Part shown: positions 1,914 to 10,275 of the stretch, piece after piece | Position numbering within the stretch: the first letter of the stretch is position 1 | Layout: each line of letters opens with the position of its first letter | DNA from: Gaiellaceae bacterium | GTDB taxonomy: Bacteria > Actinomycetota > Thermoleophilia > Gaiellales > Gaiellaceae | Assembly: GCA_036824055.1 (NCBI GenBank) | Contig: DAITAW010000004.1 | Span: 2,114 to 66,113 of the forward strand | DNA length: 64,000 nt | Reading direction: 5' to 3' | Translations under genes and position numbers: made by a program | Notes under the pieces: model-generated | Databases searched by the model: none | What the model was told of the DNA's origin: nothing | What the model saw: only the letters and a program-made list of their open reading frames with translations

Positions 1914-2184
1914 TTAGGACGCGGCGCGGACCGTCATCGGTGGCGGCAGGTTGGCGACCTCGAGGCCGACGATCTGACAACGGATTCGGGGTCCATCAAG
2001 ATGATCTTGCTTCTCCTCGCCGCGCTCTGACTTGGATTTCACTGCCCCGCGGGTCGTCAATCTGTGGCGCTTCCGCGATTTTGAGGGTCAGGTCAATATT
2101 TGCCCTGACGCGCTAATGACAATAGGCGATTCGCCCAGGAAAATCTCTTTGAGTCCGCACGGTCCATGGGATAGCGTACATTAG

Positions 2185-2200
2185 TCGAACCTACGTTCGT
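2185..2200. promoter_or_regulatory. LexA/SOS (Cheo) box candidate 1: TCGAAC-CTAC-GTTCGT
   Basis: Matches 11/12 positions of the actinobacterial LexA consensus TCGAAC-N4-GTTCGA. A TATGAT -10-like hexamer follows directly at 2202-2207. Confidence 0.5.
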
Positions 2201-2261
2201 GTATGATCTGCGGTGACTGGAGTTACCGGAGAGCCTGTTAGTACCGGCTAGGCCGGTCCGT

Positions 2262-2277
2262 TAGAACATATGTTCGA
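2262..2277. promoter_or_regulatory. LexA/SOS (Cheo) box candidate 2: TAGAAC-ATAT-GTTCGA
   Basis: GAACATATGTTC is a perfect 12-bp palindrome and matches 11/12 positions of TCGAAC-N4-GTTCGA. It lies 18 nt upstream of the ATG at 2295, just before the AAGGAAG Shine-Dalgarno. Confidence 0.5.
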
Positions 2278-2294
2278 GAGAAAGGAAGTCTGAG

Positions 2295-2534
2295 ATGAGT
2301 AATCAGCGGCACGTAACCAAGGACGGCGACGACTGGGTGGTTAGGAAGCCAGGCGCAGAGCGCGCAAGCTCTCGCCATGGCACCCAGCGTCAGGCTGATC
2401 AGCGCGCCGCGGAGATCTTGGGCAACAGCGGCGGCGGCGAGCGGGTCACCCACGGCTTCGATGGGCAGATCCGCAGCAAGGACACGATCGCGCCTGGCAA
2501 CGACCCCAACCCGCCCAGGGACAAGGAGCACTAG
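2295..2534 (+). CDS. DUF2188-family small protein
   Basis: 79 aa. The pattern HVTKDGDDWVVRKPGAERASSRHGTQRQADQRAAEIL...ERVTHGFDGQIRSKDTIAPGNDPNPPRD matches the DUF2188 pattern (GW-V-k-Ga-Ras...tq-eA...A...HgrDG-Ir..dsyg.DP.PP.D). AAGGAAG SD lies 7 nt upstream of the ATG. Confidence 0.7.
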   Translation: MSNQRHVTKDGDDWVVRKPGAERASSRHGTQRQADQRAAEILGNSGGGERVTHGFDGQIRSKDTIAPGNDPNPPRDKEH

Positions 2535-2641
2535 CTGAGTCGAGCGAGACGCTCGCCAAGGCCACGACGCCACTCAGGGGCGCCAGTTGCGTTGGGTCGT
2601 GACGCAAAACCTCGTACTTGTATCAGGAGAAAGAACGGTAA

Positions 2642-3034
2642 ATGGCGCGGCGTCCCAGAGCATTCATCAGCTTCGATTACGACTACGACCTCGACCTGCG
2701 GAATCTGCTCGTCGGGCAGGCTCGCCACGCAGACACACCGTTCGAGATCGCCGACTGGTCGGTCAGAGAGCGACAGCTTGGCGACTGGAAGGCGAAGGTT
2801 CGTCGGCGTATTCGCGCGGTCGACGTGGTCATTGTTCTTTGCGGTCATCACACGGACGACGCGTCAGGCGTCAGCGAAGAGATCAAGCTCGCCCGTGCCG
2901 AGCGGAAGCCGTATTTCCTGCTTGCAGGTCGCAAGAGTGGGACGGTCAGAAAGCCACGGGCCGCCAGGCCGACCGACAAGGTCTACAGGTGGACGTGGGA
3001 CAACCTGAAGAAGTTGATCCATGGCCGTCGCTAA
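2642..3034 (+). CDS. TIR-like domain protein (DUF1863 / ThsB-like), copy A
   Basis: 130 aa. N-terminal AFISFDYDYD, central VDVVIVLCGHHTDDASGVSEEIKLA and KPYFLL reproduce the strand/helix pattern of MTH538-type TIR-like domains. AGGAGAAAG SD lies upstream. Confidence 0.6.
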   Translation: MARRPRAFISFDYDYDLDLRNLLVGQARHADTPFEIADWSVRERQLGDWKAKVRRRIRAVDVVIVLCGHHTDDASGVSEEIKLARAERKPYFLLAGRKSGTVRKPRAARPTDKVYRWTWDNLKKLIHGRR

Positions 3035-3072
3035 CCCGCCTGCCGACGGAGAGCTTCGGATGAGGAGGAAGA

Positions 3073-3450
3073 ATGGCCCGTGCGTTCATCAGCTTTGAAA
3101 TGGAGGATCGCTGGGCCAGGGAGTTCCTGGTTCAGCACGCCCACGACAAGGACACGAGCATTGACTTCACGGACTACTCCCTGCACGAGCCCTTTGACGA
3201 GAAGTGGAAGACGAACTGCAAGACGCGGATCAACCAGACGAAAGGCACTATCGTCATGGTCGGCCCGAATGCGGCGAAGTCTGAAGCGGTGCTTTGGGAG
3301 ATTGCTGAGACCAACCGCCAGGGCCATCCGATCTTCGGGATCCAGACCCGTAACGAGAAGACTCATCCGATCCCGCAGGGCCTGCCGTCGTCCCGCGTCA
3401 TCCGTTGGGACTTCGATGCAATCGTCAAAGAGCTGAACCGGTGGACGTAG
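3073..3450 (+). CDS. TIR-like domain protein (DUF1863 / ThsB-like), copy B
   Basis: 125 aa. AFISFEMEDRW, GTIVMVGPNAAKSEAVLWEIAETNRQGHPIFGI (the WEI motif carries the candidate catalytic Glu). GAGGAGGAAG SD lies directly upstream, 38 nt after copy A. Confidence 0.65.
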   Translation: MARAFISFEMEDRWAREFLVQHAHDKDTSIDFTDYSLHEPFDEKWKTNCKTRINQTKGTIVMVGPNAAKSEAVLWEIAETNRQGHPIFGIQTRNEKTHPIPQGLPSSRVIRWDFDAIVKELNRWT

Positions 3451-4404
3451 TTGAAGCGCGCACTACTCATCGGCATCGATCAGTACGACAACTTCAACAA
3501 CCTCGCTGGATGCGTCAACGACGCCGATGCCCTCGAGCCGCTCATCAGTCGCAACGAAGACGACAGTCTGAACTTCGAGTGCCAGAAACGAACCAGCGCC
3601 ACTGGCGGCGTCACCCGTGACGCGCTGCTCGGCGACCTTGAGGCTCTTTTCGGCGGAGGAGCAGACATCGCTGTGTTGTACTTCGCCGGCCACGGCGACG
3701 GCGTCCCGAACGACGTGGTGCTGATGACCGTGGACGGGACGAACAACACACCCGGAATCCCGTTTTCGGAAGTGATGACGAAGGTGGTCAACTCTCAGGT
3801 GGGCGAAGTGATCGTCCTCCTCGACTGCTGTTTTTCGGGTGCCGCCGGTGGAATCCCGCAGCTTGGAACGGCCGCCTCGGCCCTGCGCCCAGGGGTATCG
3901 ATCTTGATGGCCAGTCGTGGCGACCAGACGGCCGCCGAAACGGGCGAAGGGCGGGGGTTGTTCTCGACATACCTCTCTGGCGCTCTCGAAGGCGGCGCGG
4001 CCGACGTGCGAGGCAAGGTCACGCTAGCCGGCCTGTACTCGTATCTCGACGAGTCATTCGGCGCCTGGGATCAACGACCGGTGTTCAAGACGAACGTTGA
4101 CCGCCTGCACGAGATCAGGGGGTGCATCCCGACCTTGCCGCCATCTGAGTTGCGCCAGATCAATGCACTGTTTCCGGCCGTTGACCATGTGTTCTCCCTC
4201 GACCCGTCTTACGAAGACACGGTCGAAGATCATGATCCTGAGCACGCGAAGGTCTTCAAAGTCCTGCAGCGGTACCGCTACAGCAAGCTCGTCGACCCAA
4301 TCGACGAGGAGTACATGTATTACGCCGCCGTCAACAGCACCGCTTGCCAGCTCACGCCTCTTGGACGTCACTACTGGCATATGGCAAGTGAAGGCCGCCT
4401 GTGA
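3451..4404 (+). CDS. Caspase-like (peptidase C14 family) protease with a C-terminal extension of about 100 aa
   Basis: 317 aa. KRALLIGIDQY...NLAGCVNDA, His in VLYFAGHGDG (His81, nt 3691-3693) and Cys in VLLDCCFSG (Cys127, nt 3829-3831) form the caspase/metacaspase His-Cys dyad context. The TTG start abuts the TAG stop of the preceding gene. Confidence 0.8.
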   Translation: MKRALLIGIDQYDNFNNLAGCVNDADALEPLISRNEDDSLNFECQKRTSATGGVTRDALLGDLEALFGGGADIAVLYFAGHGDGVPNDVVLMTVDGTNNTPGIPFSEVMTKVVNSQVGEVIVLLDCCFSGAAGGIPQLGTAASALRPGVSILMASRGDQTAAETGEGRGLFSTYLSGALEGGAADVRGKVTLAGLYSYLDESFGAWDQRPVFKTNVDRLHEIRGCIPTLPPSELRQINALFPAVDHVFSLDPSYEDTVEDHDPEHAKVFKVLQRYRYSKLVDPIDEEYMYYAAVNSTACQLTPLGRHYWHMASEGRL

Positions 4405-4877
4405 CACGCATCGGCGCAACCGGTCATCAGGAGTTGCCTGTCGAGGCCGGCCCGTACATCCTCGAGCACGTCCGAGGCATCCTCTCCGGCTGCAGTGCGC
4501 CGCTTCGCGCTGTGACCGCCCTCGCCGCAGGCGCTGACCAGCTCGTAGCCCGCGAGGTCCTGCGTAACGGCGGCAGCCTGTATGCGATCGTCCCGGCAGT
4601 TGGCTACGAGGGCACCTTCACGGGGGAGGACTTGCGCGAATACGAGTATTTGCTTGCGCAGGCAGACCAGTTGACACGGCTCGACTTTCCCGAGCCGTCC
4701 GAGCACGCGTACTGGGCTGCCGGCAAGACCATGGTCGACAACTGCGACGTCCTCGTGGCCATTTGGGATGGCGAGCCCGCGCGCGGTCTGGGCGGAACCG
4801 GCGACGTGGTCGCCTACGCCGAAACCAGCAGCAAAGACGTACGTGTGATTTGGCCCGATGGGGTCGTGCGCGAATGA
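4401..4877 (+). CDS. Free-standing SLOG (SMF/DprA-LOG) superfamily domain protein
   Basis: 158 aa. GATGHQ..., ALAAGADQLVAREVL (DprA-like GxD helix) and VLVAIWDGEPARGLGGTGDVVAYA (LOG-like GGxGT motif). The GTG start overlaps the caspase stop (GTGA at 4401-4404). Confidence 0.55.
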   Translation: MTRIGATGHQELPVEAGPYILEHVRGILSGCSAPLRAVTALAAGADQLVAREVLRNGGSLYAIVPAVGYEGTFTGEDLREYEYLLAQADQLTRLDFPEPSEHAYWAAGKTMVDNCDVLVAIWDGEPARGLGGTGDVVAYAETSSKDVRVIWPDGVVRE

Positions 4878-4914
4878 TCCAGATCCAGCTACCGACAACC
4901 CGAGGAGGTGTGCC

Positions 4915-5466
4915 GTGGCCTATGTGACCTTGTCCGAAGCCCGCAGCGCTGCCGCGACTCGTTGGGTGACCAAGTCGCTGGCCGAGTCGGCCTTACGCAC
5001 AGCCGCGGCTGCCTCGACGAGCACCGATTACGACATCTTCTTGTCTCATTCAAGGGAGGATGCGCAGGTGATCGCCGGCGTAAAGACGCTGCTCGAGCAG
5101 GAAGGCGCGAGCGTCTATGTGTACTGGGCGGAAGAGAACCAGGTTGCACCCGTTACGGCATCAACCGCCGCCAAGCTGCGCGTGCGCATGAACCACTGCC
5201 GTTCGTTGATCTACGCCAGCTCGGAAGCATCGCCGCAGTCGAAGTGGATGCCGTGGGAGCTTGGCTATTTCGACGGACGAAAGCCCGGACATGTCGCGAT
5301 CATGCCGCTGCCATCGTCGAGTACCTTCACTGGGCAGGAGTACCTCGGTTTGTACCCGAACGTCGAGCGAGTATCGTTCCAGTCCGGACGACGCGGCCTT
5401 GCCGTCCGGAACCCGGCCACTACGAAGGCTCTGTCGAGCTTCATGCGTGAAGGGCTGAGCTTGTAG
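4915..5466 (+). CDS. Canonical TIR-domain protein
   Basis: YDIFLSHSREDAQ..., SLIYASSEASPQSKWMPWELGYFDG (candidate catalytic Glu at nt 5257-5259). I prefer the GTG at 4915 because GAGGAGG lies at 4902-4908. The track ATG at 4858 would overlap the SLOG gene by 20 nt. Confidence 0.8.
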   Translation: MAYVTLSEARSAAATRWVTKSLAESALRTAAAASTSTDYDIFLSHSREDAQVIAGVKTLLEQEGASVYVYWAEENQVAPVTASTAAKLRVRMNHCRSLIYASSEASPQSKWMPWELGYFDGRKPGHVAIMPLPSSSTFTGQEYLGLYPNVERVSFQSGRRGLAVRNPATTKALSSFMREGLSL

Positions 5467-5736
5467 TCCGATGGCTGCTGGCAAGAGCGTCGACCCGGAG
5501 CCGATGTCCACGCCGTGGACGCTTAGTGGGCGTCGAAGATGTCCTCCGCCGCCGAGCGCGGAGCAACAGAAACAGCCGCTAAGCACGAAATAAGTTCAAG
5601 CCCTCTGAGGGAGTCGAGCGTAACTACCGTTCTCACAAGCGCCGACAGCCCCTATGACCTCCTGGCTGCGTACCAGGCGCGGGCGTAATTTGCTTAAAGT
5701 GTGAGCTGAAGACTCCAGTCAACACGCTTCGCAAGT

Positions 5737-7503
5737 TTGCCCAAGGACACCTTTCCCGAGATCAATTCACTGTCGTGGCGGCAGGTGAGCTTGCTGACCC
5801 GGACTCTCGAAAAGCACCGGGAACTCTTACAGGCGGGTCATGAGGACGCGCGACGTGCGGCGCTTCTTGGTTCCCGACCCGCGTACGTCGTCGACTTTCA
5901 ACTCATCGAGGGCTACGTCTTTCCAATGGATGGTCCTCCGGAATGGAACGTTGAGCTTGGTTACTTATTCGGGCTGGGTCAAACGACTTTTGTCATTGGA
6001 CCCGGCACTCAGGTCGAGATTGCACGATTTCTCGAGTCTCTCGGCTTCTATCAGGACGAAGATGGGTTGGTCCATCAGGTGAAACCCAAATGGCGGCCGG
6101 GGCGGTCCAGTGGCGCCGCCGCGGAAGACGCGACAGCGTTGGCCCTCGATCGGCTCTCTCATCTGCTGAGCCAGAGCAACTTTGTTACCTATGACGAGCT
6201 CGTTGGCGATTCGACTGCGGAACTCGACGGAGACGGCTTCGACCAGGACGCGTATCGAACGGCGCTGGCAATACTCGAAGGGACTCCGCTGCGAAGAAAG
6301 GCATCGAGTTCTGCTAACAGAGCCGACGCTCTGAACTGGGCAACAGTGATTCAGCTCCGACGCGACCCGGCAAGAGATCGACAGATTTATCCATATCTTC
6401 TGACGGCCACACGCCCTCTTCTCGACGAGACTCTCTGGTCAGATGCGAGCAGATCGCCGGTGTCGCGTGCGCCAGCGGAAGCAATCTTCTCCGAGGTGCT
6501 ACTTGCGAGCTTTGCGAGGCCTGCCGAGGCAGCAGACCACACGGTAGAGATGGCCTTCGAGACCGCACGGCTCGAGCGCGACTTAAGGAAGAGTCCTGCC
6601 TATCGAGACCCTGACAAATTTTCTGAGGAGGCGGATTGGGAGCGAGCCCTGGAGCACGATCGCATAAGTCCTCGGCTGAGAGGCGAGCTTTCGGAGATGG
6701 CACGCTTCACGACGGATCCGATCGTCATTGAAACTCAGCGCATCTATTCTGCTGCCTCGCTCACCGCGAGTAGCACCTTTCAACAGCGTGGTATCAGCTC
6801 TGAGTCTTCTATCCTCGAGTCCCCACAGAGGCTTTTCGACCTGATCAATGGAATTAACGCGGCGTTAGTGGCCACCGCCGGCGGTCCGTCACCGATGGCC
6901 GACTTATGGAAATCGTTGCTGGAGGTCGAAGAAAAGACTGCAACGGGGTATCTGAGCTACTCAGTGGTGGATCGCGTACGGAACGATGAGACATATAGCT
7001 ACCTAGTTGCCGAAGTGCATTCGCCTCAGACGAGCGACACTGACGACGACGCGAGTCTCATCGTTTCCCGCTGGCGAAGTTCGCTTGACGGGGAAGCGAT
7101 CCTAGCTACGTTTTCTGACGCCTTCTCGCAAGCGAACGCCGAAACCGTGGACGTTCTCGTCGGAACTCCTATGGGGGTTGCCGAATTCGACGCGGATATT
7201 CCACTCACCTTGCTTGAGATTGTCAGCGCTTGCGAAAAAGCAGGGGCGTTCGGGAGGAGTGAAGTCGGCGTGCCCGCGATTAACTGGGTGAGGCTGGCGG
7301 CACCACCGTTTGAACTCTTCGCGGAGCTCACTGCAAGACCGCCGCGAACTCCCTTGATCGGTGTTTTCGCAAGCCGGTTCGATGAACCCCGGCTAGGCGA
7401 CCTCTTTCGACGTACGTCAGGGAGATATCTCTTCGCGGCTTGGCTTGAGCGAGCACTAGAAGACATCGAGCGACGTACGATGCAAGACCGAGTTGTCGCC
7501 TGA
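5737..7503 (+). CDS. Hypothetical protein, 588 aa, no recognisable domain
   Basis: A long ORF with a balanced, protein-like composition in a visibly AT-richer stretch. The opposing ORFs are Ser/Arg-rich shadows. The TTG start is uncertain. Confidence 0.6.
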   Translation: MPKDTFPEINSLSWRQVSLLTRTLEKHRELLQAGHEDARRAALLGSRPAYVVDFQLIEGYVFPMDGPPEWNVELGYLFGLGQTTFVIGPGTQVEIARFLESLGFYQDEDGLVHQVKPKWRPGRSSGAAAEDATALALDRLSHLLSQSNFVTYDELVGDSTAELDGDGFDQDAYRTALAILEGTPLRRKASSSANRADALNWATVIQLRRDPARDRQIYPYLLTATRPLLDETLWSDASRSPVSRAPAEAIFSEVLLASFARPAEAADHTVEMAFETARLERDLRKSPAYRDPDKFSEEADWERALEHDRISPRLRGELSEMARFTTDPIVIETQRIYSAASLTASSTFQQRGISSESSILESPQRLFDLINGINAALVATAGGPSPMADLWKSLLEVEEKTATGYLSYSVVDRVRNDETYSYLVAEVHSPQTSDTDDDASLIVSRWRSSLDGEAILATFSDAFSQANAETVDVLVGTPMGVAEFDADIPLTLLEIVSACEKAGAFGRSEVGVPAINWVRLAAPPFELFAELTARPPRTPLIGVFASRFDEPRLGDLFRRTSGRYLFAAWLERALEDIERRTMQDRVVA

Positions 7504-7505
7504 TT

Positions 7506-8030
7506 ATGGCTGTACGCTTTAAGGGGTTTCTCTCGAAACTGGCCCCGGAACGAAGTCGCGCAGCACGGGTGTTGGCGAGCCGGGACGAGGAAACCGTCGG
7601 CTACTGGACCTTGCCCGAGCACCACGGCGTGGAGATTGCCTTCTTCCTCCAATTCCATGATTCGGACGATCAGGCCCTTGCCAAGCGTAAAGCGCGGATT
7701 CGCGTTGCGTACCGGAACTTTCAGCCAGAGACACTCCATTTCAAACGACGCATCGGATCGTCGGGGTCGACTGTTGAGGACTACAAGGAGGATGACGAGC
7801 TGATCATTTGGGCGGCCAGGAACGATGACGATCGGGCCCCCTATGTCGAGCGGATCCTCGACGACGCTGTTGGCGTACGAAAGCGTCCGGACCGTTCTGA
7901 ACTTCAGGCGAAGATTGAATTTACAGAGCCTCAGCAGTACAGAGTATTGGGCGTCGACGAGTTCAGGTTCGCCTTTCCAGACGGAGGCAATGCCAAGTGC
8001 GTGTGTTGCTTGCAGTTTTTCCGTATCTAG
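7506..8030 (+). CDS. Hypothetical protein, 174 aa
   Basis: ATG lies 2 nt after the TGA of the 588-aa gene (tgattATG), which suggests coupling. The composition is protein-like. No known motif. Confidence 0.55.
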   Translation: MAVRFKGFLSKLAPERSRAARVLASRDEETVGYWTLPEHHGVEIAFFLQFHDSDDQALAKRKARIRVAYRNFQPETLHFKRRIGSSGSTVEDYKEDDELIIWAARNDDDRAPYVERILDDAVGVRKRPDRSELQAKIEFTEPQQYRVLGVDEFRFAFPDGGNAKCVCCLQFFRI

Positions 8031-8398
8031 CATCCCTCGCCGTGTACCTGTTCAACGCGCGTGATCTCTTCCTGAACACACGCCCGCCGCCGCATTGGAC
8101 TTGGCGGCTCTCAGCGCCGGTGATGATCGCGGGCCTGACCCCTCTTGCTCTGGCCTCGAAGACCTCGGCCGTATCGAGTGGGGAGCAGAACCTTCTATTG
8201 CTAGCTCCCGCCTTGGGAGTGATGTATGCGGTCCTCGCGTTTGGTCGCTTCCGAGAGAAGGATTTTCTGGCGCTACATCGCCCGTTTACGTTCTTCGATA
8301 GGGAGATCAAGTTTCTGTCGCGTCGCCGCTTTTGGATCGGCCTAGGAGCCTTGGTGATCGCCTACGCGGCCGCGGCGAACATCTATGTGAGCGCATAA
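7997..8398 (+). CDS. Hypothetical small integral membrane protein (3-4 predicted TM segments)
   Basis: Hydrophobic stretches LLAVFPYLASLAVYLF, APVMIAGLTPLALA, LLLLAPALGVMYAVLAF and WIGLGALVIAYAAAANIYV. The GTG start overlaps the preceding gene by 34 nt. Confidence 0.5.
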   Translation: MRVLLAVFPYLASLAVYLFNARDLFLNTRPPPHWTWRLSAPVMIAGLTPLALASKTSAVSSGEQNLLLLAPALGVMYAVLAFGRFREKDFLALHRPFTFFDREIKFLSRRRFWIGLGALVIAYAAAANIYVSA

Positions 8399-8630
8399 TG
8401 GCTCGTCTGGCCTAATTGACCGCTGGTGTCCAAAAAGGAGGCCTTTGGTGAGGTGGACCACGAGAGCGGTGGACGTGCTAATCAGCGGGCAAGAAGATCT
8501 GCGCGCCTTGGCCGTTTGCGAATCGCCGTCCCGTTAAGAATCCGTCGCGGGGCGCGAAATCCGCGAAATTCTCCCGTTAAGCGGTCGGGCCTAGCGTCAA
8601 CCCCGCTCGTGCGCTGGGCTGCGAAGTTGA

Positions 8631-8993
8631 AACCGAACCCTGCTGGCGCGCATCCGCGCCGTGCTGCGGCGGACGTCGCCGGCGGCGCACGAGGTCCTGC
8701 GGGCGGGCCCGATCGCCGCGGACCTTGCGACGAGGTGCGTGACCGTCGACGGCGTGCCGGTCACTCTCGCCGGGAAGGAGTACGAGCTCCTGCTCAAGCT
8801 GATGACCGATCCGACGAGGGTGTTCACGAAGGAGCACCTGCTCAGGGAGGTCTGGGACTTCAGGTCACTCGGCCGGACGAGGACGCTGGACTCGCACGCG
8901 TCGCGACTCCGACGGAAGCTCAGCGCCGCCGCGAACGAGGGGCCCTTCGTGCTGAACGTCTGGGGGGTGGGCTACCGGCTCCTCGGAGGATAA
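8631..8993 (+). pseudogene. OmpR/PhoB-type response-regulator remnant: only linker and winged-helix DNA-binding domain
   Basis: The frame opens right after a TGA at 8628-8630. It reads NRTLLARIRAVLRRTS...LRAGPIAADLATRCVTVDGVPVTLAGKEYELLLKLM...VFTKEHLLREVWD...TRTLDSHASRLRRKL...NVWGVGYRL, a Trans_reg_C domain. No receiver domain lies upstream. A GTG at 8661 could still allow expression of a stand-alone DNA-binding protein. Confidence 0.6.
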
Positions 8994-9004
8994 GCTCGTC
9001 CTCC

Positions 9005-9370
9005 ATGAGCGCGTTCGCCGGCCTTTCCTCGCTCGACCTGCAACGGATCTTCAACGGCGTGCACGTCCGCGTCGTACACGGCGAGCGGATCACTTTCGGC
9101 GTGGTCGAGCTCGATCCCGACAGTCACGTGCCGGAGCACCAGCACGAGAACGAGCAGCTCGGCATGTGTCTGCGCGGCACGCTCGGGTTCCGGGTCGGAG
9201 ACGAGAGCCGCGAGCTCGCTGCAGGTGACACCTGGTCGATTCCGAGCAACGTCCCGCACGAGGTCCACGTCGGTCCCGAGGGTGCGGTGGTCATCGACGT
9301 CTTCGTGCCGACCCGTGACGACTGGCGCGAGGCCGAGCGTGTCGAGCCGCGCCCGCCACGCTGGCCCTAG
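9005..9370 (+). CDS. Cupin-domain protein
   Basis: HVPEHQHENEQLGMCLRGTL and GDTWSIPSNVPHEV match the two cupin motifs. Only the part of the 8426-9370 ORF from the ATG at 9005 onward looks coding. Confidence 0.7.
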   Translation: MSAFAGLSSLDLQRIFNGVHVRVVHGERITFGVVELDPDSHVPEHQHENEQLGMCLRGTLGFRVGDESRELAAGDTWSIPSNVPHEVHVGPEGAVVIDVFVPTRDDWREAERVEPRPPRWP

Positions 9371-10275
9371 TCGAGGATCTCGACCGTGTCACCGTCCAGC
9401 AGCACGTGCGCGCGGCCGACCTGCTGACCGTCGAAGCGCGCCGACGGGCCCCAGACCCGCGCACCTGTGCAGCGCGCACCGAGGTCATGATGGATCGAAT
9501 CCGCGACGTCCAGCACCGTGAAGGGCGGGTGCAGCGCGATCGGATGCTCGCCGTCGCGTAGATAAACGCGCATCAGTCCGGTCAGCCGCCAGATCGTCTC
9601 GCGCAGACGTTCCACGCTGGCGTCGTCGAGCACGCTGACTTCGACGACCTGAAGCTTCGGGAACGCCGCGCGGAGCGCGGCGCTGTCGGCCTCATCGCTC
9701 TTCGTCGCGGCGATCACCGCCGGGCGTTCGATGCCCGCGTCGGTGACCTCGTCCATGACCGCTCGCAGTGCAGCGACCGGTGCGCCTGCGTCGTGGCAGA
9801 ACAGAATCGCGTCAGCGCCACGGAGCACGCCGAGAAGTGGACGTGCGCGGCCGCGACCCGCCGCTGCGCCTTCGATCAGACCGGGGATCTCGACCAGTTG
9901 CACGAGCACGCCGCCCACCCGAGTGAGCGCCGGCACGGGCTTCGTGGTCGTGAAAGCATAGGCGCCGGTCTTGATCTGGATGTTGGAGAGCGCCTGCAGC
10001 AGCGACGACTTCCCGGCATTCGGCACGCCGACGAGCGCGATCTGCGCGGCGCCCTCGCGCCGGACGGCGATCGAGTCGCGATGAGTCACGCGCTTCTGCA
10101 CCCGCGTGTGCTCGAGCTGCGACTCGACCCACTTGCGGATGTCCGCGTACGGGCCGTTCTTGTACCCGGGCAGCTCGGCGAGGATCGTCCTCAGCTCGCG
10201 CACGCGTTCGGAGCCGTCCTTGCCGACGAGCCGGCGTTTGATCAGTTGCATCTGCGTGCGATGCGGCATGGGCAT
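9367..10275 (-). CDS. OBG/DRG-family GTP-binding protein with C-terminal TGS domain
   Basis: The G1 motif is GVPNAGKSSL. The segments IEGAAAGRGR and ATKSD (the NKxD position) are also present. The C-terminus is TGS-like (VLDVADSIHHDLGARCTGARVWG...VLLDGDTVEI). Confidence 0.75.
   Translation of the reverse strand: MPMPHRTQMQLIKRRLVGKDGSERVRELRTILAELPGYKNGPYADIRKWVESQLEHTRVQKRVTHRDSIAVRREGAAQIALVGVPNAGKSSLLQALSNIQIKTGAYAFTTTKPVPALTRVGGVLVQLVEIPGLIEGAAAGRGRARPLLGVLRGADAILFCHDAGAPVAALRAVMDEVTDAGIERPAVIAATKSDEADSAALRAAFPKLQVVEVSVLDDASVERLRETIWRLTGLMRVYLRDGEHPIALHPPFTVLDVADSIHHDLGARCTGARVWGPSARFDGQQVGRAHVLLDGDTVEILD

Follow-up and report, generated by a model that had tools for sequence, protein, structure and literature searches.

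What does a third gene, overlapping that of the effector, contribute to a bacterial immune system that has been described with two? The question is raised by five tightly packed genes in a 64,000-nucleotide stretch of DNA from a Gaiellaceae bacterium (hereafter the window), which encode two short TIR proteins of the DUF1863 type (TIRa and TIRb), a caspase-like protease, a small free-standing protein of the SLOG fold and a third, canonical TIR protein (TIRc; Table 1). We find by sequence comparison that the TIR and caspase genes very probably represent, gene for gene, the core of type IV Thoeris (ThsB plus ThsE), and that the apparently novel part is the SLOG gene, which is tightly and widely tied to thsE in what appears to be a widespread, undescribed variant. 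The explanation that best accounts for these observations overall is type IV Thoeris signaling with an added nucleotide-binding SLOG subunit that would tune or gate ThsE, a reading to which we assign a probability of roughly 0.6.

According to its published description, type IV Thoeris consists of two genes: a TIR protein (ThsB) produces N7-cADPR upon infection and a caspase-like protease (ThsE) responds with promiscuous, arginine-specific proteolysis, the C-terminal domain of ThsE being the hypothesized N7-cADPR-binding receptor; the verified Pseudomonas and E. coli systems function with these two genes (Rousset et al., bioRxiv 10.1101/2024.10.24.620036, Science 2025). An earlier note on the window, made from the sequence alone, had mentioned a type IV system with a caspase-like protease and had put the five genes forward as a candidate new Thoeris-like system. 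For comparison, the verified E. coli locus was recovered via the published TIR DNA, and the native Pseudomonas sp. 1-7 locus via the PsTIR protein. Over its entire length, the window caspase shares 40% identity with each of the verified effectors, EcCaspase (E 3e-80) and PsCaspase (E 1e-76), so that the proposal of a new system was overstated. Conservation is highest in the C-terminal 112 residues (48% identity to EcCaspase and 45% to PsCaspase, vs. 36–38% in the protease half), and the C-terminal domain that had been considered uncharacterized is thus the ThsE C-terminal domain; similarly, the idea that signal generator, sensor and effector are split over separate polypeptides is not supported, as ThsE still carries a putative sensor domain of its own. 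His81 and Cys127 align with the catalytic dyad, which is invariant across the comparison (Cys127 corresponds to PsCaspase C129). The caspase structure model resembles the MALT1 paracaspase and metacaspases, no solved ThsE structure was found in the PDB by sequence or by fold, and in NCBIfam the protein matches an EACC1-associated caspase type below threshold.

The TIR proteins support the same assignment. Both DUF1863-type proteins align over their full length with the verified PsTIR, TIRa with 34% identity (E 2e-21) and TIRb with 27% (E 2e-16), and their candidate catalytic residues, Glu80 of TIRa (nt 2879–2881) and Glu76 of TIRb (nt 3298–3300, in a WEI motif), both align with PsTIR E79. A recent duplication as the origin of the pair was considered and rejected: TIRb is an old paralogue of TIRa rather than a recent duplicate, because the two share only 30% identity, and each has separate orthologues, those of TIRa being 73–77% identical and at the equivalent position in two related loci (L081 and L083). 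TIRc belongs to a different TIR family, and its match to TIR_2 sits at the Pfam cutoff. Its candidate catalytic Glu (nt 5257–5259) lies within PWELGYF. Among verified ThsB proteins, a type IX member is 52% and a type V member 47% identical to the TIR domain of TIRc, and the two come from cluster 2612357774, which the Sorek laboratory reports from configurations of types I, IV and V. Additional TIR genes are no sign of an undescribed subtype, as the earlier note had supposed, since Table S1 of Rousset et al. (10.1101/2024.10.24.620036) has an "additional TIR" column in which multi-TIR type IV loci are already catalogued. Many Actinobacteria type IV entries in that table are marked "±2," with the TIR gene two genes from the caspase; this spacing would fit an unmentioned intervening SLOG gene, and none of the organisms with SLOG-linked loci that we searched for by name appears there. 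Because every defining component is homologous to verified systems, the core can be assigned to type IV Thoeris, and the defense role proposed earlier is likely by homology to the verified type IV effectors and PsTIR. Profile searches (Pfam PF08937, PF00656 and TIR_2; the PADLOC ThsB profile) agree with the earlier naming of the three TIR proteins and the caspase, and the catalytic residues picked out from the sequence are the ones that align with the verified proteins or, for TIRc, lie within PWELGYF.

The fourth protein has no counterpart in this published core. It is a 158-residue, single-domain protein, unfused to any effector as first reported, and sequence profiles were silent: there was no match in Pfam (including DUF1273, at E up to 0.1), PADLOC or NCBIfam, nothing significant in the PDB by sequence, and a weak match to a "GTP-binding domain" family in PHROGs (E 0.006), although some homologues carry the source annotation DUF1273. 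With nothing significant from sequence profiles, the SLOG fold is established solely by structure prediction, which bears out the earlier assignment and places the protein in the YpsA-like branch. The AlphaFold model (pLDDT 94) has B. subtilis YpsA/DUF1273 (2nx2) as its best Foldseek match (E 3e-8, TMq 0.75), followed by TM1055, ShosA, DprA, the ThsA SLOG domain with 3'cADPR, a Moco carrier protein and LOG enzymes; further matches are viral YspA/DUF2493/DprA-like proteins. The family consists of tightly conserved proteins of about 158 residues; with a cutoff of E ≤ 1e-30 its profile retrieves 333 representative clusters, a number that rises to 5160 with E ≤ 1e-10. Across 128 sequences (60 caspase-linked and 68 stand-alone), G5, G8, H9, G44, D46, Q47, P65, Y69, G108, W122, D123, G124, G129, G131, G132 and T133 are invariant or nearly so, and since the same residues are conserved in both sets, the pocket chemistry is common to both. 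Residue 10 differs between them, being Gln in 100% of caspase-linked proteins vs. 9% of stand-alone ones (Arg in the stand-alone copies inspected).

To assess how closely this protein is associated with ThsE, we used 57 metagenome loci picked solely by caspase similarity, each with at least 300 nt downstream. In 52 of the 57 a SLOG gene lies directly 3' of the caspase gene, and in the five exceptions no SLOG-profile match was found anywhere on the contig. Among 70 loci with both genes, with SLOG starts inferred from alignment coordinates, 45 show a 4-nt overlap between caspase stop and SLOG start, and in 14 others the two overlap or directly adjoin (59/70). The GC content of the SLOG-linked metagenome loci ranges from 45 to 74%. 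In 52 of 75 loci, the gene immediately 5' of the caspase gene encodes a DUF1863-type TIR protein; elsewhere there is a TIR_2 protein (L124), a TIR-WD40 protein (L021) or a TIR gene on the opposite strand (L001, L010, L137). The partners of the caspase-SLOG pair thus vary, including PsTIR-like, EcTIR-like, TIR_2, TIR-WD40 and CATRA/EAD1 proteins, and the pair is more constant than its TIR partner. In Frankia sp. R82 (L004:5287-8477), the genes for a ThsE-like caspase (57% identity) and a SLOG protein come after that for a CATRA-N/CATRA-C/EAD1 protein, and the caspase-SLOG pair may also serve sensors other than TIR proteins. A TIR gene after the SLOG gene, as in the window, was seen in 9 of the 52 loci with enough sequence, and none in the other 43; a TIRc gene occupies this position in L082, L083, L086, L088 and L133. 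The block as a whole is conserved, the check that the earlier note had called for: L083 has the identical five-gene order with a caspase 74% identical to that of the window, and two further loci are otherwise near-identical, L082 without TIRa and L081 with the TIRc-like reading frame broken in two. Collectively, these data indicate that the SLOG protein probably belongs functionally with ThsE.

Similarly, a three-gene TIR-caspase-SLOG form occurs on B. subtilis pBS72, on Agrobacterium Ti plasmids and on Rhizobium plasmids, the pBS72 caspase and SLOG proteins being 41% and 43% identical to their counterparts in the window. Complete operons of this form, in genetically tractable hosts, are those of pBS72 (L163:1629-3483, with TIR at 1629-2039, caspase at 2036-2998 and SLOG at 2995-3483) and Agrobacterium pTiCFBP5877 (L161:2651-4492). 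In a neighbor-joining tree with EcCaspase as the root, the SLOG-linked caspases lie in a clade to which PsCaspase does not belong, and SLOG-less loci are scattered within that clade, which suggests sporadic loss of the SLOG gene there. The two verified loci (L084 and L156) are without a SLOG gene. In the sample of 57 environmental contigs selected by caspase, however, type IV Thoeris mostly takes the SLOG-linked form rather than the two-gene form that has been published.

Taken together, the window appears to hold an abortive-infection type IV Thoeris system in a low-GC defense island of a Gaiellaceae-like actinobacterium. By homology, one of the three ThsB proteins would sense a phage cue and, once activated, make from NAD+ an isomer of cyclic ADP-ribose (for the verified systems, N7-cADPR), which would bind the C-terminal domain of ThsE, and ThsE would then cut many cellular proteins after arginine and halt the infected cell; possession of several ThsB proteins probably widens the range of phages sensed. 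The SLOG protein, presumably made in a fixed ratio with ThsE via the overlapping start codon, would act as a nucleotide-binding regulatory subunit of the effector: by binding an ADP-ribose derivative that a TIR protein has made, it would gate or tune the activation of ThsE, as a threshold or a second input, and not as the primary sensor. It is seen as an add-on because a C-terminal domain is still present in ThsE itself and the verified systems do without a SLOG protein.

Whether the SLOG protein binds a ligand or acts on one is the closest call, and the view that it is a ligand-binding regulator rather than an enzyme is held tentatively, at slightly below even odds. A binding role is favored by the YpsA-like fold, the invariant pocket motifs and the residue aligned with the LOG catalytic Glu. 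The YpsA clade is predicted to bind NAD/ADP-ribose-type ligands, and SLOG proteins of conflict systems have been proposed to be sensors or nucleotide-processing modules attached to effectors. The protein itself could be an enzyme acting on the signal, either an off-switch that opens or degrades the cyclic ADP-ribose isomer and so protects against autoimmunity, comparable to the ring nucleases of type III CRISPR, or a converter that matures the TIR product into the activator of ThsE. LOG phosphoribohydrolases, members of the SLOG superfamily, cleave the N-glycosidic bond between base and phosphoribose, and N7-cADPR would be closed by the same kind of bond; moreover, the polar residues H9, D46, Q47 and D123 are invariant in the 128 sequences, and orthologues without caspase or TIR neighbors suggest an intrinsic activity. 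However, when the LOG motif PGGxGTxxE is aligned by hand with the GGT motif of the SLOG protein, the position of the catalytic Glu is occupied by a conserved Val136, and among the stand-alone sequences conservation of the neighboring Asp135 reaches only 69%. The nearest structural matches (YpsA, DprA, the ThsA SLOG domain and the Moco carrier protein) are presumably binders of ligands or nucleic acids, and fusion to SLATT effectors suits a sensor better, so that an enzymatic role seems to us rather unlikely. The model of the earlier note, a new Thoeris type in which a separate TIR protein makes the signal, the SLOG protein is its obligatory receptor and the caspase is the effector, would be in keeping with the SLOG domain of ThsA as the 3'cADPR receptor of type I Thoeris, with the nearly constant, translationally coupled co-encoding of SLOG protein and caspase, and with the retention of this pair while TIR proteins are swapped. 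It is nonetheless improbable: ThsE has the length and architecture of the SLOG-less verified effectors, which respond to N7-cADPR unaided, its C-terminal putative ligand domain is its best conserved part, and it has lost nothing that a SLOG protein would need to replace. An accessory regulator is thus ranked above an enzyme, with a split sensor third, because ThsE retains its putative receptor domain and the verified systems are SLOG-less.

The family of TIRc raises the question of whether two adjacent systems are present, type IV Thoeris (TIRa/TIRb and ThsE) and a SLOG-TIRc pair related to types I, III and IX in which TIRc makes 3'cADPR for the SLOG protein. The similarity of TIRc to type IX and type V ThsB proteins, in a cluster that includes type I ThsBs, would fit this, as would its 32% identity to TIR1 of type III Thoeris and the free-standing SLOG protein of a type III-like Klebsiella locus. 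The type IX TIR product is 3'cADPR, and type I and IX effectors carry SLOG domains. This arrangement is improbable as well, since the SLOG gene is coupled to the caspase stop codon and not to TIRc, no TIR gene follows the SLOG gene in most of the loci, the 158-residue protein has no effector domain, and its profile does not match the type III-like SLOG cluster 2/3 proteins (hhalign probability ~1%). A related idea, entertained because the TIRc family elsewhere serves SLOG effectors and its type IX member makes 3'cADPR, is that the system has a second receptor in the SLOG protein, which would read another isomer, e.g., 3'cADPR from TIRc-type ThsBs, and feed it into the caspase, with two TIR signals being integrated; this we consider unlikely, and most SLOG-linked loci, which are without a TIRc-type TIR after the SLOG gene, count against it. 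With equal reserve we regard the more general proposal that Thoeris signaling here requires the SLOG protein as a third component and follows a different logic because of it, the protein being the first host-encoded signal regulator (buffer or hydrolase) or a second receptor. A caspase-based module for regulated cell death or development in multicellular actinobacteria, unrelated to phages, would account for the Frankia pair beside a CATRA/EAD1 protein and for the sub-threshold match to EACC1-associated caspases, yet it is highly improbable given the full-length homology to two effectors verified in phage defense, the low-GC island with an adjoining TIR-NB-ARC-TPR gene and PADLOC candidate gene, and the occurrence of the same genes on plasmids of unicellular bacteria.

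Several observations weigh against a SLOG subunit dedicated to type IV Thoeris signaling. In Frankia loci there is no TIR gene within 8 kb of the caspase-SLOG pair, and only 8 of 50 plasmid-borne ThsE-like caspases have a SLOG gene adjacent or close by. Pairwise identities of caspase and SLOG proteins are moderately correlated (r = 0.51), five loci in or near the SLOG-linked clade have lost the SLOG gene, and no caspase-SLOG fusion was present in the few multi-domain proteins checked among the 150 best SLOG-family representatives. The ligand of the family need not be TIR-made, because stand-alone and SLATT-linked orthologues occur without a nearby TIR gene, and the protein itself could, as discussed above, be an enzyme.

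The type IV assignment also stands when the locus is set beside other known systems. Like the verified type IV loci, the window has a full-length orthologue of the effector, C-terminal domain and His/Cys dyad included, and a short DUF1863-type TIR with an aligned Glu that abuts the caspase, all within a defense island; extra TIRs are allowed in type IV. It differs in the translationally coupled SLOG gene between thsE and the third TIR gene, and in having three ThsBs from two TIR families, known here from sequence. The published system is a two-gene core with no further conserved component, whereas here the SLOG gene is conserved downstream of thsE. A gene-for-gene match to a named subtype, which the earlier note had listed as grounds for refutation, is therefore found for the TIR and caspase core and fails for the SLOG gene, which is absent from the verified loci. 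The locus is a multi-ThsB, SLOG-linked variant of type IV Thoeris and not a non-member, departing from it only by a conserved third gene family. In the literature searched, no SLOG gene was tied to type IV Thoeris or to N7-cADPR, an earlier bioinformatic mention of TIR-caspase-YpsA neighborhoods being possible.

With type I Thoeris (ThsB plus the SIR2-SLOG protein ThsA) the window shares a TIR signal maker and a SLOG-fold protein; the TIRc family serves type I too, and the 3'cADPR-bound SLOG domain of ThsA (7uxs) is a significant structural match to the window protein (E 2e-4). However, the latter is free-standing and YpsA-like (TMq 0.75, vs. 0.47 to the ThsA SLOG domain), the operon has no SIR2 gene or domain, and its effector is a protease with a putative sensor domain of its own; lacking a SIR2-SLOG effector, the system is not type I. 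Type III Thoeris, according to the summary of van den Berg et al. (2024) given in 10.64898/2025.12.03.692087, comprises several TIR proteins and a SLOG-containing effector. The resemblance lies in multiple TIR genes, SLOG-fold protein(s) and the kinship of TIRc with TIR1, whereas the window has no patatin or other SLOG-fused effector and uses a caspase as effector; the comparison sets three TIR genes and one SLOG protein without an effector domain against that description. A type III-Thoeris-like locus is present on Klebsiella variicola plasmid pKLVA-1 (L162:4908-10285), with four TIR genes, a patatin-SLOG cluster 2 protein and a free-standing SLOG cluster 3 protein, which shows that multi-TIR operons can also contain free-standing SLOG proteins from a different family. 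Identity of the window protein with these type III SLOG proteins was considered and rejected, as neither Pfam nor hhalign links it to the Klebsiella proteins.

The same SLOG family also occurs outside Thoeris. Stand-alone orthologues with 44–49% identity and identical pocket motifs were found in ~60 Streptomyces loci (among L002-L080), with no caspase or TIR gene detected in their flanks; in the loci inspected the SLOG gene is near an FxsB-like radical SAM gene. In one of the loci (L008), the SLOG gene (8001-8474) is convergent to that of a SLATT_3+SLATT_1 membrane protein (8492-9451, – strand), and in other bacteria the family is fused to SLATT/DUF4231; STAND NTPase and MpaB-like domains were the other fusion partners among the few multi-domain proteins checked. 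SLOG-SLATT pairs and fusions (Pfam SLATT_1/SLATT_3/DUF4231) are said to have been described by Burroughs and colleagues in 2015 among nucleotide-centered conflict systems. Pairing with an effector is the feature these proteins share with the window, and by analogy it is the usual pattern of a sensor module; the window protein differs in its partner, a caspase-like protease accompanied by TIR genes, and in its Gln at residue 10. YpsA/DUF1273 itself, cell-division-related in B. subtilis, is similar in size and in its GxD/E nucleotide-site motif, whereas the window protein has no match to the DUF1273 profile and lies in a defense operon, not a gpsB context.

Table 1. Features of the SLOG-linked type IV Thoeris operon in the window (nucleotide positions are those of the window).
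Feature	Position	Strand	Evidence or detail
thsB (TIRa), 130 aa, DUF1863/ThsB_TIR type	2642..3034	+	Pfam PF08937 3e-8; PsTIR homology
thsB (TIRb), 125 aa, DUF1863/ThsB_TIR type, abuts caspase gene	3073..3450	+	Pfam PF08937 4e-14; PsTIR homology
thsE, caspase-like effector, 317 aa	3451..4404	+	PF00656 7e-15; full-length homology to verified effectors
ThsE protease domain	~residues 1-205	+	His81 nt 3691-3693, Cys127 nt 3829-3831
ThsE C-terminal domain	~residues 206-317, nt 4066-4401	+	alignment with EcCaspase, PsCaspase
Free-standing YpsA-like SLOG protein, 158 aa	4401..4877	+	AlphaFold and Foldseek
SLOG motif GxxGH	G5..H9, nt 4413-4427	+	invariant
SLOG motif GxDQ	G44..Q47, nt 4530-4541	+	invariant
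SLOG motif WDG	nt 4764-4772	+	invariant
SLOG motif GxGGT	G129..T133, nt 4785-4799	+	invariant
thsB (TIRc), 183 aa, canonical TIR	4915..5466	+	PADLOC ThsB PDLC00422 1e-57; Pfam TIR_2 2.8e-6

All five co-directional reading frames lie where the earlier note had placed them (Table 1), and their junctions, taken directly from the window sequence, agree with the translational coupling it described. The TIRb stop codon (TAG, 3448-3450) abuts the TTG start of the caspase gene, a start that is backed by the conserved N-terminus MKRALL(I/V)GID of the homologues; GTGA (4401-4404) holds both the stop codon of the caspase gene and the start codon of the SLOG gene, and the other intergenic gaps are 38 nt and 37 nt. 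Upstream of the TIRa ATG (2642) is GGAGAAAG, which resembles a ribosome-binding site of the Shine-Dalgarno type, and a Shine-Dalgarno-like run, GAGGAGGA, is upstream of the TIRb ATG (3073). The best start for TIRc is the GTG at 4915, preceded by GAGGAGG, and gene callers on contigs of the same organism also give 183 residues. A promoter scan found its sole + strand promoter-like site upstream of the DUF2188 gene described below, and terminator-like sites were in no excess over shuffled sequence.

The operon is part of an island (~2000–8500) with a GC content of 57–62% vs. ~69% in both flanks, which on contigs of the same organism (a Gaiellaceae-labelled metagenome-assembled genome) lies beside housekeeping genes for an Obg-like GTPase, mraZ, rsmH and a PBP; in a search for mobile-element boundaries, neither a tRNA nor a convincing flanking direct repeat was found. 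A gene for a 79-residue DUF2188 protein (2295-2534, +), which matches the PADLOC candidate PDC-S16 (2e-19), is situated 107 nt upstream of TIRa. DUF2188 has been listed as a putative Thoeris effector adjoining TIR genes (2025 Sorek-laboratory preprint). As a sixth conserved member of the operon the gene was rejected, because it occurs only on contigs of the same organism, whereas L081-L083 and all other loci lack it. Further upstream (46-1017, +), truncated by the window start, is the C-terminal TPR part of a 986-residue TIR_2-NB-ARC-TPR (STAND/NLR-like) protein that is complete on same-organism contigs (L157-L160); this fourth TIR-domain gene, ~1.6 kb upstream of the operon, is probably an independent defense gene. 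Three tightly packed reading frames (5737-7503, 7506-8030 and 7997-8398, +; 588, 174 and 133 residues) lie in the same low-GC island and are kept on the same-organism contigs; they match nothing in Pfam, PADLOC, NCBIfam or PHROGs and could be an uncharacterized defense module.

The SLOG protein is a concrete candidate for a missing control layer that keeps the lethal ThsE silent before infection, because most environmental members of one large clade translate it together with the effector, and because it is kept while TIR proteins are exchanged. In this capacity it could set a threshold, serve as a second receptor or process the signal as an enzyme, and the finding gains interest if it is a signal regulator or a second receptor. 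The homologues on pBS72 and on Agrobacterium and Rhizobium plasmids make its role directly testable. Moreover, since SLATT membrane effectors are further partners of this SLOG family, knowledge of its ligand and of how it acts would shed light on the wider set of uncharacterized SLOG-containing conflict systems.

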